A model generated the notes under the pieces. It was given only the letters and a program-made list of their open reading frames with translations, was not told the DNA's origin and ran no database searches. A stretch of 64,000 nucleotides of DNA from an uncultured Faecalibacterium sp. (GTDB lineage Bacteria; Bacillota; Clostridia; Christensenellales; Aristaeellaceae), in contig CAYXHF010000004.1 of the NCBI GenBank assembly GCA_964464815.1, forward strand, positions 2,483 through 66,482. The letters are read 5' to 3'. This document shows, one piece after another, positions 251-4,619 of this stretch. Positions within the stretch are counted from its first letter, which is position 1, and each line of letters begins with the position of its first letter. The position numbers were made by a program, and so were the translations under genes.

Positions 251-1129
251 ATGCCGCGTACCCTGTCACCTGCCATGCGCGTGGAGCGCAGCATTCTATC
301 CGACTTTCGCAAGCCGCTCTGGCGTCCTTTTGTCCGGGGCATCAAGCGCTATGAGATGATTGCTCCCGGCGACAAGATTGCCGTATGCATCTCCGGCGGC
401 AAGGACTCCATGCTGCTGGCCAAAATGATGCAGCTGCTTCAGCGCCATACGGAAATTCCCTTCGAGACGGAATTCATCGTCATGGATCCCGGATATGAAC
501 CGGAGAATTTGCAGCGCATTATCGACAATGCCGCCCTGCTGGAAATTCCGATTCGCGTCTTCACCAGCAACATCTTCGAGACGACCCGCATTGCCGAGCG
601 CAACCCCTGCTACCTCTGCGCACGCATGCGCCGCGGCTTCCTCTACGACCGGGCACAGGAGCTTGGCTGCAACAAAATCGCATTGGGACATCACTTCAAC
701 GACGTGGTCGAGACGACCGTCATGGGCATGTTCTATGGCGCACAGCTGCAAGCCATGCTGCCCAAGCTGCATAGCCGCAATTTCCCCGGTATGGAGCTGA
801 TTCGCCCGATGTACTGCGTCCACGAGGAGGACATTTGCGCCTGGCGCGACTTCAACGACCTGCATTTTATCGCCTGCGCCTGCCGCCTGACCAAGGAGCG
901 CGACAGCACGCCCGACGGTGTGGGCCGCTCCAAGCGGCAGGAAATCAAGGTGCTGCTGCGCACACTGCGCGAAACCAATCCGGACGTGGAGAAGAACGTG
1001 TTCAACGCCATCCACGCCGTTTCGCTGGACACCATGCCCGGCTGGAAAATCGGCAAGCAGGAAATCAGCTTCCTCGACCACTACAACGACCCGCGTCCGA
1101 CCACACAAGGAGATGACGATGATGAATGA
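251..1129 (+). CDS. ttcA: PP-loop ATPase, tRNA 2-thiocytidine biosynthesis TtcA family
   Basis: SGGKDS PP-loop motif (VCISGGKDSMLL) and CxxC (NPCYLCARMRRG). AAGGAGG at 237-243 sits 7 nt before the ATG. Confidence 0.8.
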   Translation: MPRTLSPAMRVERSILSDFRKPLWRPFVRGIKRYEMIAPGDKIAVCISGGKDSMLLAKMMQLLQRHTEIPFETEFIVMDPGYEPENLQRIIDNAALLEIPIRVFTSNIFETTRIAERNPCYLCARMRRGFLYDRAQELGCNKIALGHHFNDVVETTVMGMFYGAQLQAMLPKLHSRNFPGMELIRPMYCVHEEDICAWRDFNDLHFIACACRLTKERDSTPDGVGRSKRQEIKVLLRTLRETNPDVEKNVFNAIHAVSLDTMPGWKIGKQEISFLDHYNDPRPTTQGDDDDE

Positions 1130-1658
1130 GTTGCTTCTCACCCGCCGTTCCATCCGCAAGTTCACCGCCGACCCAGTGTCCGCCGACACCCTGCGCACGC
1201 TGGTGACGACCGCTTCCTACGCGCCGAGCTGGAAGAACAGCCAGACGACCCGCTACACCGCGCTGACCACACGCGAGGAGATTGACCAGATTGCCGACAC
1301 CTGCTGTCTGGGCTTCCAGCACAACACGAACATCCTGCACGGCACGCCGGTGCTGATGGTGCTGTCCACCGTCAACGGCCGCAGTGGCTATGAGCGCGAC
1401 GGCTCCTTCACCACCAGCAAGGGCACGCACTGGCAGTCCTTCGACGCCGGTCTTGCGACACAGACCTTCTGCCTTGCCGCACATGATGCAGGCCTCGGCA
1501 CAGTCATCCTCGGCATTTTCGACGAGGAAAAGGTCCGTCAAATTATGTCGCTCCCGGAGGGCGAAAGCATCTCGGCGCTGATTGCGCTGGGCTACCCCGC
1601 GGAAGCACCCGCTGCGCCCAAGCGCAAGGACGTTGACGATTTGCTGCGCATTCGTTGA
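1119..1658 (+). CDS. nitroreductase family protein
   Basis: N-terminus LLLTRRSIRKFTADPVS and the overall pattern are typical of the NADH/FMN nitroreductase fold. AAGGAG at 1107-1112. The start could be 1113, 1119 or 1122. Overlaps the ttcA stop. Confidence 0.8.
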   Translation: MMNELLLTRRSIRKFTADPVSADTLRTLVTTASYAPSWKNSQTTRYTALTTREEIDQIADTCCLGFQHNTNILHGTPVLMVLSTVNGRSGYERDGSFTTSKGTHWQSFDAGLATQTFCLAAHDAGLGTVILGIFDEEKVRQIMSLPEGESISALIALGYPAEAPAAPKRKDVDDLLRIR

Positions 1659-1668
1659 TTGCGCTGAC

Positions 1669-1890
1669 GCAGCACCCTCTCAGTCACCTTCGGTGACAGC
1701 TCTCCCAAAGGGAGAGCCAAGGGTGCTGGCCATGCAGGACTTTCACACCCGAAGCACTTGGAATTGTTACTACTGTACGTTGCCGGAACAAGCACGTTCA
1801 GTAAAGTGAAAACTTGTCGGCATCAAGACACCCACTTGGCTCTCCCTCTGGGAGAGCTGGCGGCCTCTGGCCGACTGAGAGGGCGCGCGC
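1669..1890. repeat. 222-bp structured repeat R, copy 1 (long inverted-repeat element)
   Basis: Differs from 2661-2882 at one position by manual alignment. Termini are GCACCCTCTCAGTC and GACTGAGAGGGCGC. Internal hairpin modules include GCTCTCCC-AAA-GGGAGAGC and GCTCTCCC-TCT-GGGAGAGC. Confidence 0.9.
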
Positions 1891-1995
1891 CAGCTACATT
1901 TCACCTTCTTTCGTTTCAAGAAAAACATACCTCCTCATTCAGGGTTGAATCAGACGGTAAATTCGGGTATAATAAAAGCGAAGGGAGCTGATTGC

Positions 1996-2241
1996 ATGAC
2001 CAACATCGTCCCCATTTCCGATTTGAAGAACTACACCGAGGTTCTCAGCCATTGTGACGACGGTGGCACCGTCTACCTGACCAAGAATGGTCGCGGGAAA
2101 TACGTGGTGCAGAGTCTTGTGGAATATGAAAAACTGCAAGCAACCGTGAAGCTGCTTGCAGAGCTTGCAAAGGGGATAGAATCCATCCGCACAGAAGGCG
2201 CTCTGACTGTTGATGAAGCCTTCGCCGGGCTGGAGGACTAA
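1996..2241 (+). CDS. type II antitoxin, Phd/YefM family
   Basis: MTNIVPISDLKNYTEVLSHCDDGGTVYLTKNGRGKYVVQS is a typical Phd/YefM N-terminus. AGGGAG at 1982-1987. The stop lies 2 nt before the toxin ATG. Confidence 0.8.
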   Translation: MTNIVPISDLKNYTEVLSHCDDGGTVYLTKNGRGKYVVQSLVEYEKLQATVKLLAELAKGIESIRTEGALTVDEAFAGLED

Positions 2242-2243
2242 GC

Positions 2244-2558
2244 ATGGCGCAGGTAACAGTATCTAAAGCAGCACAGCGTGATTTGATTTCGATTCGCAGC
2301 TATATTCGGGATGAGCTTTGCAATCCCGACGCCGCCAAACGCATCATTGCCAGCCTGAAAAAAAGCATTCAGGCGCTCGGAGCGTTTTCCGGGCGCGGTC
2401 GTCCACTGGACGCGCTGATACCCGTCCATACGGAATACAGGTATCTTGTGTGCGAAAATTACTGCATCTTCTATCTTGAAAGCAGCGACAACGTCCTCAT
2501 TGTGCGCATTCTGCATCAGCGCCAGGACTGCCTGCGCGCACTGTTTCTTGAACACTGA
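2244..2558 (+). CDS. type II toxin, RelE/ParE family
   Basis: 104 aa with a ParE-like pattern (AQRDLISIRSYI ... YRYLVCENYCIFYLESSDNVLIVRILHQRQD). Tightly coupled to the upstream antitoxin. Confidence 0.85.
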   Translation: MAQVTVSKAAQRDLISIRSYIRDELCNPDAAKRIIASLKKSIQALGAFSGRGRPLDALIPVHTEYRYLVCENYCIFYLESSDNVLIVRILHQRQDCLRALFLEH

Positions 2559-2575
2559 TGATTTTCATTCCGGCT

Positions 2576-2617
2576 ACACCTCGTCGATATACGCTCGGCG
2601 AGGTGTTTTCTTTTTTT
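2576..2617 (+). terminator. intrinsic terminator of the TA pair
   Basis: 11-bp stem ACACCTCGTCG / CGGCGAGGTGT (one G-U pair), followed by TTTCTTTTTTT. Confidence 0.7.
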
Positions 2618-2660
2618 GAAAACCAATAAGCTGTGAAGCCAATACTTGCTTTTACCAGCA

Positions 2661-2882
2661 GCAGCGCCCTCTCAGTCACCTTCGGTGACAGCTCTCCCAA
2701 AGGGAGAGCCAAGGGTGCTGGCCATGCAGGACTTTCACACCCGAAGCACTTGGAATTGTTACTACTGTACGTTGCCGGAACAAGCACGTTCAGTAAAGTG
2801 AAAACTTGTCGGCATCAAGACACCCACTTGGCTCTCCCTCTGGGAGAGCTGGCGGCCTCTGGCCGACTGAGAGGGCGCGCGC
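2661..2882. repeat. 222-bp structured repeat R, copy 2
   Basis: Same sequence as 1669-1890 except G2666 versus A1674. Perfect 14-bp terminal inverted repeat GCGCCCTCTCAGTC / GACTGAGAGGGCGC. Confidence 0.9.
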
Positions 2883-2950: not shown

Positions 2951-3367
2951 TTACAGCTGATAATACGCCAACAGCATCAGCAGGGAGAGCGCGATACAGC
3001 ACAGCCCTACAATCAGGATGCCATACATCGCGTCGCCACGCTTTTCGGCCTTGGCGGTCTTGTAATCAAAATAGGCCGGCATCTCGCCCGGACGCTTGAT
3101 AGGCGAAAACAGCGTGAACAGGCTCTTGAAGGCATAGCCCAGAATGTCGAAGAAGCCCGTCGTCGCAATCGCGGTCAGCGCACCAATGCCCGTGTAGCAA
3201 ATGCCCACGATGAAGAACGCATCGCTCACCACGCGGCAATTTGCATTCAGCGCTTTGGCCGTATCCAGTCCCAGATTCAGGCACAGGCCAATGCCGATGG
3301 CCAGCGCCGACAGGGCCACAATCAGATTCGCCCGCGCCTTGCCCTTGTTCTTTGTTTCTTTGCTCAT
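2951..3367 (-). CDS. small multi-pass membrane protein (DUF3899-like)
   Basis: 138 aa with 3-4 hydrophobic segments and the FFDILGYAFKSLF motif I associate with DUF3899. The family name is from memory. Confidence 0.65.
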   Translation of the reverse strand: MSKETKNKGKARANLIVALSALAIGIGLCLNLGLDTAKALNANCRVVSDAFFIVGICYTGIGALTAIATTGFFDILGYAFKSLFTLFSPIKRPGEMPAYFDYKTAKAEKRGDAMYGILIVGLCCIALSLLMLLAYYQL

Positions 3368-3437: not shown

Positions 3438-4619
3438 TTATTCAGCTTTCAGCATTTCCTGATAGCGCTTGAATTCTGCGTCATTGCACATGACGAAGTG
3501 ACCCGGCGTAACCTCACGCATGGAGGGCTTGTCCACGGAATAATCGTGTTCGGCCAGCGGATCGTAGTGCTTGCGCTGACGATTCTTCTCGTAATCCGGA
3601 TCGGGCAGCGGGATGGCAGACAGCAGCGCCTGCGTGTAGGGATGCAGCGGATGCGCGAACAGCTCCTCGGAGGTCGCCAGCTCCACCATCTTGCCGTAGT
3701 ACATCACGCCGATGCGATCGGAGAAGTACTTGACGACCGACAGGTCATGGGCGATGAAGAGAATCGTCAGACCCAGCTCACGACGCAGGTCGTTGAGCAG
3801 GTTGATGACCTGCGCCTGAATGGACACGTCCAGTGCAGAAACAGGTTCGTCGGCGATAATCAGCTCCGGGTTCATGATGACCGCACGGGCCACGCCGATA
3901 CGCTGACGCTGGCCGCCGGAGAATTCATGCGGATAGCGACCCGCATGCTCACGCACCAGACCAACCATCTCCAGAACGCGGTAGACCTTCTCGTCCACGA
4001 CAGCCTTGTTCGTTTCGCCACGGATGGACAGACCTTCCGCGATGATTTCGTACACCGTCATACGGGGATCGAGGGACGCAATCGGATCCTGGAAAATCAT
4101 CTGAATCTGGGTGGTGAAGCGCTGGTGACGGGCGATGTTGCGCTCGTAAGCATACTGGCGCTTCACCTCGTCCTGCTTGTCTGCGGGCGTCTCCTTGAGG
4201 ATTTCCGCGTACTTGCGATCCACTTCCTTCGCCACTTCGTTGGAATAGATCTTGTCGCACTTATCGTGATCGAAACGCGCGCTGCGAATCAATTCACGAT
4301 TTTCCGCGATAATCTTCTTCAGCTCTTCCTTGCGCGCCGGATCAGCCGTCTTCATTTCAGCCTTGGCCGCCGCGATGGCGTCCTTGTAGCTCTTCGTGCC
4401 AGCGGCGATGCGCTTGCCCTTGAAGTAGATGCTGCCGGACGTGATGTCATAGAGCTTGATGATGGAGCGGCCGGTCGTGGTCTTACCACAGCCGGACTCG
4501 CCCACCAGGCCGAATACTTCGCCCTTCTTGATGTCAAAGGTGACATCGTCAACGGCTTTGTTCGCGCCAAAATACTGGCACAGATGATCTACTTTCAGCA
4601 GAACCTCCTGATCAGCCAT
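3438..4619 (-). CDS. oppF: Opp/Dpp-type ABC transporter ATP-binding protein (OppF-like) with an insertion
   Basis: Walker [11 protein letters not shown]-loop IFQDP, signature FSGGQRQR, Walker [12 protein letters not shown]. About 95 extra residues lie between the Walker A region and the Q-loop. Confidence 0.9.

Follow-up and report, generated by a model that had tools for sequence, protein, structure and literature searches.

In the chromosomal integrons of Vibrio, toxin-antitoxin (TA) cassettes that have their own promoters lie between direct copies of attC (VCR), imperfect palindromes of about 120 bp that work in folded form, and the cassettes are excisable. Another group of palindromes, the REP, BIME and REPIN elements of Proteobacteria, is mobilised by RAYT Y1 transposases (PMC3333891, PMC3184786). 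At the folA-apaH intergenic region of E. coli, strains carry either the TA locus ccdO157 or, in about half of the isolates, REP (Mine et al. 2009, in the summary given in PMC3184786), and in IMU two non-coding elements with terminal inverted repeats bracket a cargo (Poirel 2009, likewise as summarised in PMC3184786). Here we describe a phd-parE TA operon that lies between two direct and almost identical copies (R1 and R2) of a 222-bp palindromic repeat, R, in a stretch of 64,000 nt from an uncultured Faecalibacterium sp. (GenBank assembly GCA_964464815.1, contig CAYXHF010000004.1, positions 2,483 to 66,482 of the forward strand). This whole stretch is called the window below; its contig, C4, belongs to a short-read draft assembly of 76 contigs that is 96% complete, referred to as the source genome. 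The reading that we favour, and to which we give an even chance of being right, is that a repeat already resident at this site was duplicated in place when a fragment of phage DNA was captured, yielding the order R-TA-R.

R consists of two inverted arms, each a double hairpin of about 50 nt, set around a core. Judged by its copies, it is one member of an abundant interspersed repeat family that resembles REP elements and MITEs (miniature inverted-repeat transposable elements), and in this species it has long been resident between a nitroreductase gene and the terminator of a DUF3899 gene. Like REP, BIME and REPIN, the family is made of short GC-rich palindromic units with many intergenic copies, which are found singly, in inverted pairs and in clusters of a mosaic or tandem kind, are placed beside terminators in 3' untranslated regions, and show compensatory changes that preserve the hairpins. 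Unlike them, it has no RAYT in the source genome, its arm is the double hairpin just mentioned, its core of about 110 nt evolves fast, and its host range here is gut Clostridia and their phages. The likeness to ccdO157 is that of a chromosomal type II TA pair, present or absent between strains at one intergenic site, with REP in the region; here, however, the palindrome is duplicated on both sides of the TA genes, a phage donor context can be identified, and the pair is of the Phd/ParE type. With the attC cassettes of Vibrio the locus shares a TA pair with its own promoter bracketed by direct copies of a palindrome, but we find no integron integrase, attI or cassette array: the one tyrosine recombinase, whose IntI-specific features were not examined, lies on contig C3 and none lies on the contig of the window, only one cassette-like unit is present, copies of R lie scattered over the genome, and the flanking copies are, save for one base, identical and not hybrid. 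IMU resembles the locus in its bracketing of cargo by two non-coding elements, whereas the present locus has neither a target-site duplication nor a matching transposase, is known from one location only, and lies where one copy already stood. As far as we have found, the near-exact duplication of a palindrome around captured phage DNA is an undescribed variant, seen at a single locus.

The features of the locus, in window coordinates, are the following.

1119-1658, plus strand: nitroreductase gene, the left flank (PF00881, 111 bits); its stop codon lies 10 nt before R1
1669-1890, no strand: R1, left copy of the 222-bp palindromic repeat, recognised by 221/222 identity to R2, by matches to the arm model and by its fold; left arm about 1675-1723, core about 1724-1834, right arm about 1835-1884 (arm-model matches at 1675-1723 and 1834-1884, that is C4:4157-4205 and 4316-4366)
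1891-1898, no strand: 8 nt (CAGCTACA) that separate R1 from the point where homology to the phage module begins
1899-2617, plus strand: phage-derived TA module, comprising intergenic leader, promoter, phd, parE and terminator, recognised by nucleotide identity to contigs with phage context
1945-1973, plus strand: sigma-70-type promoter-like site, TTGAAT-17-TATAAT, conserved in homologous modules
1996-2241, plus strand: antitoxin gene of the phd/yefM type, 81 aa (PF02604, E = 7e-9, 35.8 bits against a cut-off of 29.8)
2244-2558, plus strand: toxin gene of the parE type, 104 aa (PF05016, E = 8.8e-17, 61.9 bits against a cut-off of 23)
2576-2616, plus strand: intrinsic terminator of the TA operon, a 12-bp stem at 2576-2606 with a T-run after it, which the phage copies conserve
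2618-2660, no strand: 43-nt filler between the TA terminator and R2
2661-2882, no strand: R2, right copy of the repeat, with a perfect 14-nt terminal inverted repeat
2892-2927, no strand: bidirectional terminator hairpin (AAAACCCGCCCGG..CCGGACGGGTTTT), read from the sequence, common to the nitroreductase side and the DUF3899 gene and present in the single-repeat contig L072 described below
2951-3367, minus strand: gene of a DUF3899 membrane protein, the right flank (PF13038, 65.8 bits)

R1 and R2 are identical at 221 of 222 positions. The sole difference, at position 6 (A1674 in R1, G2666 in R2), is the one given in the first-pass annotation of this DNA, and the identity ends abruptly just outside 1669-1890 and 2661-2882, on both sides. 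Each copy is a 215-bp palindrome; in R2 the perfect pairing spans positions 4-218, with positions 4-17 pairing perfectly with 205-218 (GCGCCCTCTCAGTC / GACTGAGAGGGCGC). The terminal inverted repeat of 14 nt that had been reported, GC(A/G)CCCTCTCAGTC / GACTGAGAGGGCGC, is real, 100% complementary in one copy and 93% in the other, but it begins at copy position 4 (1672 and 2664) and not at the first base; likewise, the four hairpins described in the arms are all present, but the fourth (GGCGGCC/GGCCGAC) contains a single mismatch. Set 113 nt apart, the inner 25-nt arms reach 96% complementarity. Folding of each strand, a check that the annotation had called for, gives energies of -118 and -123 kcal/mol on the two strands (z = -9.2 and -8.3), none of 200 shuffled sequences folding as well as the native one. 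Searches of Rfam return sub-threshold chance matches only (MIR4416, 25 bits against 70), and by its sequence R belongs to no RNA family known to Rfam. The 770 bp between the copies (1891-2660) hold only the antitoxin, the toxin and their terminator, as had been noted, together with the promoter-like site that we find in addition.

Was the repeat brought in by the TA genes, or was it there before them? The annotation had proposed that the cassette arrived with the repeat or was moved as a MITE-flanked unit. Metagenome contigs of the same species speak against both. Ten contigs with the PP-loop and nitroreductase genes (96-100% identical; L072-L081 are among them) all enter an R arm 10 nt after the nitroreductase stop codon, and five contigs with the DUF3899 gene (98.8-100% identical) end in the right arm of R at the same junction as in the window. 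Positions 3-6 of the left junction are polymorphic among the ten (GCAGCA, GCAGCG, GCGGCG, GCCAGG and GCAACG), and L067, L068, L070 and L071 share the right junction of the window, from which L069 departs by 4 nt. The Logan contigs stop within the arms, as one would expect where a repeat is assembled. All related contigs are of human-gut origin, which fits the genus name. The contig L072 (a megahit contig, ENA ERZ27271038) spans the site, and carries the nitroreductase gene, one R-type element of 221 bp and the DUF3899 gene, with no TA genes in between; the empty site that had been predicted, with a single R, therefore exists. Identity to the window is 94% and 90% in its flanks, and its R, though only 75-76% identical to R1 and R2, still has in these two its best match in the source genome; we conclude that the element is orthologous and that it changes faster than the sequence on either side. 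For the nearest species (G030-G032) synteny stops at the nitroreductase gene, and no site devoid of R can be defined there.

Given that the outer junctions of R1 and R2 are the very junctions of the single resident R, with no target-site duplication, the unit was not transposed as a whole into a new site. R1 and R2 moreover share a few bases outside the family consensus, which covers R positions 7-216 (the bases concerned are at positions 1-6 and 217-222), and no other copy is more than 87% identical to them, which argues that both derive from one resident R. The annotation had taken their near identity as a sign of recent duplication, and in accordance the duplication looks recent, the copies being 99.5% identical to each other and at most 87% to any other copy. 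The exact Phd and ParE proteins are on record only in the source genome at NCBI, in a search of about 15 billion proteins in a collection whose coverage is not guaranteed, whereas the flanking proteins are matched exactly elsewhere (PP-loop in 21 contigs, DUF3899 in eight, some of these contigs being 100% identical to the window); this suggests an insertion that is recent and private to the strain.

The insert itself has the affinities of phage DNA. phd precedes parE with a gap of 2 nt, both products score above the curated Pfam cut-offs, and the pair is by these matches a predicted type II toxin-antitoxin of the Phd/YefM-ParE type, ordinary as such (330 homologues of ParE are found at E <= 1e-20). 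With a promoter-like site and a terminator that are both conserved in homologous modules, the operon is self-contained. Among the contigs looked up, its closest relatives are 14 metagenome contigs with phage tail genes, which are 87.3-88.1% identical in nucleotides over 1899-2617 and whose ParE differs at five to eight residues. There the module has a divergent gene upstream, perhaps a tape-measure gene, as its N-terminus by eye resembles such a protein, and a 42-codon gene and a Phage_TAC_19 gene downstream. A fifteenth relative, L107, with 81% identity, adjoins a polysaccharide deacetylase gene and not phage genes. Farther away, the module (window 1937-2612) is 72-80% identical in congeneric species, where its contexts are unrelated and arms are lacking, and 81% identical in the Heliusvirales gut phage PV036454 (L098); it occurs as well in 14 IMG/VR viral contigs (L116-L128 among them), with limits at about 1942-2617, in differing neighbourhoods and with no arms nearby. 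Judged from these settings, the phd-parE module behaves as a mobile, self-contained phage gene module, and its occurrence without the repeat in phages and other species again tells against a cassette that came or moved together with R.

The limits of the homology are informative. In L101 and L103-L114 it starts at 1899, just past the start codon of the upstream gene of the phage, and it ends at 2614-2617, where it cuts the 42-codon gene. As both limits lie inside phage genes, the insert is a fragment of a phage genome and not a unit with ends of its own. The stretches that join it to the repeats, 8 nt at 1891-1898 and 43 nt at 2618-2660, match nothing in any sequence set searched: the 43-nt filler has no match in the phage contexts, the source genome or the spacer models, its 22- to 27-mers have none in viral, metagenome or genome collections, and neither the 29-mer nor the 31-mer taken across the junctions occurs in the metagenome and genome collections. 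Elsewhere in the source genome the 770-bp insert has no counterpart, and it matches neither of the conserved spacers of the repeat arrays; a resemblance of the insert edges to array spacers, CTAC..TTCAC, seen by eye, was not significant and was discarded. No other gene of this phage type is found in the source genome, and four TA-carrying phage genomes contain neither R nor an arm. These data support the view of the annotation that the TA genes form a separate insert with a direct copy of a structured repeat on either side.

Across the source genome, the double-hairpin arm occurs at least 101 times (iterated nhmmer arm model), and the true number is higher because many contigs end inside arms. 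Searched with R, the genome yields R1 and R2, 19 near-full-length copies at 70-87% identity (the next-closest copy being 87% identical) and dozens of matches to the ends alone; the repeat is thus multi-copy, in answer to the copy-number check set by the annotation, and not a sequence peculiar to this locus. There are 27 complete elements of about 210 bp (210-222 bp), in each of which an arm on the plus strand is followed by a core of about 100-115 nt and an arm on the minus strand, beside solo arms, tandem pairs of complete elements and arm-plus-linker arrays with periods of 116 and 173 bp. The arm reads GCCCTCTCAGTC, hairpin 1, AGC, hairpin 2, CAAGG. Hairpin 1 is GTCACC..GGTGAC in 37 of 84 distinct arms and GTCGGC(C/T)..GCCGAC in most others, and hairpin 2 is CTCTCCC/GGGAGAG or CTCCCCC/GGGGGAG; given these compensatory versions of both hairpins, it is the fold of the arm that is conserved. 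In the manner of a MITE, R has 14-nt terminal inverted repeats, is non-coding, is shorter than 400 bp and is present in at least 27 copies. No direct repeat that could be a target-site duplication is seen at the listed flanks of R copies, and no allele devoid of R was recovered at any locus to define a target.

Tandem pairs of R with partners 94-100% identical are found at five other loci, and such near-identical partners suggest local duplication or gene conversion. The tandem pairs of complete elements, each element of about 211 bp, fall into a type A, with a spacer of about 90 bp (C5:86109-86620, C5:97209-97559, C70:5642-5993 and C4:81787-82131), and a type B, with a spacer of about 60-78 bp (C23:33126-33614, C66:75-573 and C42:3072-3673). 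Each type of spacer keeps its sequence from locus to locus and is also found beside some single copies. Where both partners are complete, the high identity just given holds for every pair but that on C42, whose partners are 64% identical, one of them having a longer core. The arm-plus-linker arrays on contig C49 (C49:7704-8316 and C49:10931-11498), within each of which all arms have the same orientation, have a period of 116 bp with at least five units, interrupted by Ns, and a period of 173 bp with four units, respectively. The same contig holds an unrelated 121-bp tandem repeat (C49:2438-2836; 92% matches over 3.3 copies), each unit of which has a GC hairpin and a tail rich in A. At C63:6929-9239 the gene of a 471-aa permease lies between two direct copies of R that are only 84% alike; it was considered as a second case of a gene between R copies and set aside as a coincidence of repeat density, and it follows that bracketing by R can arise from repeat density alone.

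Outside the source genome, the arm, not the core, is present in 12 of 39 other species of the genus and, at 86-98% identity, in eight of the 71 other genera of the family that were sampled, and reaches 95-98% in genomes of other genera (G132, G133, G164, G084 and G041). It is also found in gut phage contigs. The three species closest to the source genome, which are the most similar at the flanking genes, have no arm, and a search of a plasmid collection gave one arm-like match only. This patchy distribution fits a horizontal spread of the arm sequence.

Which enzyme could move such a repeat? Neither of two candidates is encoded in the source genome, and both were rejected as its mobiliser there. 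Y1 transposases of the RAYT type (PF01797) gave no match in the 96%-complete draft, while control genomes did give matches. DUF559 (PF04480) is absent by profile search, tblastn with the DUF559 proteins of related species finds no remnant in the R cores or elsewhere in the genome, and the R core bears no DUF559 coding trace. Within the genus, 22 of 39 other genomes have DUF559, and 11 of the 12 arm-bearing ones are among these 22, a count that does not amount to a statistical test, as the genomes are inter-related; the source genome, with neither the DUF559 gene nor a remnant of it, has the most arms found in the searches of the genus. In G014 a DUF559 gene lies between inverted arms (L094, G014:C135:25146-25740). 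At two further loci, L087 and L093, a DUF559 reading frame terminates within an arm (...SPQGEAK). We found no open-access description of this repeat family or of a link between DUF559 and repeats. The enzymes of mobile elements detected in the source genome, a draft of the kind that can under-represent insertion sequences, are one clear tyrosine recombinase (contig C3) and one DDE_Tnp_1 fragment (C8), with no rve match and none of these genes on the contig of the window. In agreement with the annotation, which reported no transposase or integrase in the window, that contig has no match to PF00589, rve, DDE_Tnp_1 or Y1 (other transposase families were not searched). Lack of Y1 transposase and DUF559, and the few matches to the transposase families searched, again disfavour a MITE-flanked unit. 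A parent insertion sequence was sought and rejected, as the sole distant inverted pair of arms (C49:5332/7704) encloses ordinary genes and no transposase.

How, then, might the order R-TA-R have come about? The duplicated segment reaches beyond the perfect palindrome (4-218) by only 3 nt at its left end and 4 nt at its right. Limits so symmetric point to a process set by the folded palindrome, and given that the segment ends 3-4 nt outside it, a staggered break or stalled replication at the base of a cruciform would be the most likely route. We propose that a fragment of about 0.72 kb from a Heliusvirales-type gut phage, with the full phd-parE operon, was captured at the resident R in the lineage of this strain. 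The event would have started where the extruded cruciform or hairpin has its base, either with a staggered break or with stalled replication and subsequent template switching. The hairpins would then unfold and be filled in, such that each end keeps a full R, and the R-bearing ends would be joined around a phage fragment present during an infection, with the fillers of 8 nt and 43 nt as by-products of the joining. Such a duplication in place would explain the limits of the duplication, the identity of the copies, a foreign fragment with non-functional ends, and the fillers. As a consequence, and equally under each of the other histories considered below, the direct repeats of 222 bp, which should be an adequate substrate for deletion by recombination, could recombine in a RecA-dependent manner, so that the cassette is deleted and the single R restored. 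TA modules are known to oppose their own loss by addiction, and addiction to ParE would select against loss of this cassette.

Several points weigh against this proposal. It rests on a single instance, as no second locus shows a palindrome-exact duplication around foreign DNA. The tandem pairs at the five other loci mean that a tandem pair could predate the TA genes here as well, and gene conversion could keep the copies alike without any recent event. Most same-species contigs break inside R, and L072, with its flanks at 90-94%, is the one allele for which a single copy is established. The copies differ at position 6, where both bases segregate at the left junction, and a simple duplication in one step does not predict this. 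The donor is known at 88% identity only, and the filler is unexplained. Finally, an exact repeat of 216 nt makes a loop in an assembly graph, and the order R-TA-R is taken from a short-read draft alone.

Two other histories have to be taken seriously, although we consider neither of them probable. In the first, a small circle carrying one R and the TA genes recombined with the resident R, by integration of the Campbell or cassette type, and left a hybrid R on each side; the exchange might be homologous, or be made by a purely speculative hairpin-recognising recombinase in the way that attC recombines with attC in integrons. Integration of this kind gives direct repeats whose limits equal those of R, at a site that when empty holds a single R, and it permits the difference at position 6, R1 keeping the resident base and R2 the base of the donor, both alleles of which are in the population; the compensatory changes in the hairpins, in addition, suggest that the folded form matters. 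On the other hand, R adjacent to these TA genes is on record nowhere else, and the relatives of the module that we examined have no arms nearby. This history also calls for a donor R that matches the resident one at 99.5%, non-consensus bases included, in a family whose copies differ by at least 13%. Nor is there a cassette array, and the one clear tyrosine recombinase of the genome is on another contig.

In the second, which we rate just as low, two R copies with a short spacer stood at the site beforehand, and the phage TA fragment later entered the spacer by illegitimate recombination. Pairs with spacers of 59-102 bp and partners 94-100% identical do exist on C5, C23, C53, C66 and elsewhere, non-phage sequence of 8 and 43 nt does lie beside the insert, and most same-species contigs cannot tell one copy from two. 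But even at E <= 100 these 51 remaining nt give no match to either type of conserved spacer, and the sole allele that spans the site (L072) has a single R. A random hit on a spacer of some 50-100 bp is in itself improbable, unless pairs of R attract insertions.

The remaining explanations fare worse. A temperate phage that carried R could have integrated at the resident R, with deletions that left only the addictive TA module. That TA modules resist deletion is established, the insert is phage DNA, and arm-type repeats do occur in gut phage contigs (H4-H12); still, this history seems to us rather remote, for it requires an integration and at least two deletions that ended 8 nt and 43 nt from intact R copies, the four TA-carrying phage genomes without R or an arm and the lack of any other gene of this phage type in the source genome tell against it, and the hybrid copies would differ unless the R of the phage was identical to the resident one. 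We think it very unlikely that the locus is an artefact in which the assembler threaded a loop, made of a collapsed R and a TA side path, into the chromosome. R1 and R2 are indeed identical over 216 nt, which is above the usual k-mers, the draft has 76 contigs of which many end in arms, and the exact TA proteins are missing from metagenome assemblies whose flanks are 100% identical. Both junctions, however, are unique sequences in the contig, a difference at position 6 is expected of two real copies, and a circle of 992 bp would have no replication function. Hardly credible at all is the MITE-flanked composite transposon of the first-pass annotation, two R copies and their cargo moved as a unit by a transposase acting in trans, for although R has terminal inverted repeats and many copies, and pairs of MITEs are known to mobilise cargo, as in the IMU elements (Poirel 2009, again in the summary of PMC3184786), the unit sits exactly at the single-R site, with the same outer junctions and no target-site duplication, R-TA-R is found nowhere else in the source genome or in the metagenome and genome collections, and the genome has no Y1 transposase, DUF559 or rve and one DDE fragment only.

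Little is understood as yet of the routes by which TA modules, which have no recombinase of their own, are exchanged among phages, plasmids and chromosomes. The locus described here supplies three pieces of one such move: an empty site with a single R, a filled site with R-TA-R, and a close relative of the donor context beside phage tail genes. Its junctions, resolved to the base, present a REP-like palindrome as the landing place, duplicated almost exactly at its base, and the locus adds a data point on a large repeat family of gut Clostridia that breaks short-read assemblies. We extend this, with a slim chance of being right, to the suggestion that the double-hairpin palindromes of gut Clostridia are structure-specific capture sites, at which breakage or nicking at the symmetric ends duplicates the element around foreign DNA. 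The breakage could be due to host junction-processing enzymes or, in other genomes, to the associated DUF559 nuclease. If true, the result would be excisable cassettes, a recombinase-poor counterpart of capture by integron attC sites, and this could explain how promoter-to-terminator modules such as TA pairs pass from phage to chromosome. If such events are general, interspersed palindromes would be hot spots of gene capture and loss in gut Firmicutes, and TA addiction would decide which of the captured pieces persist.

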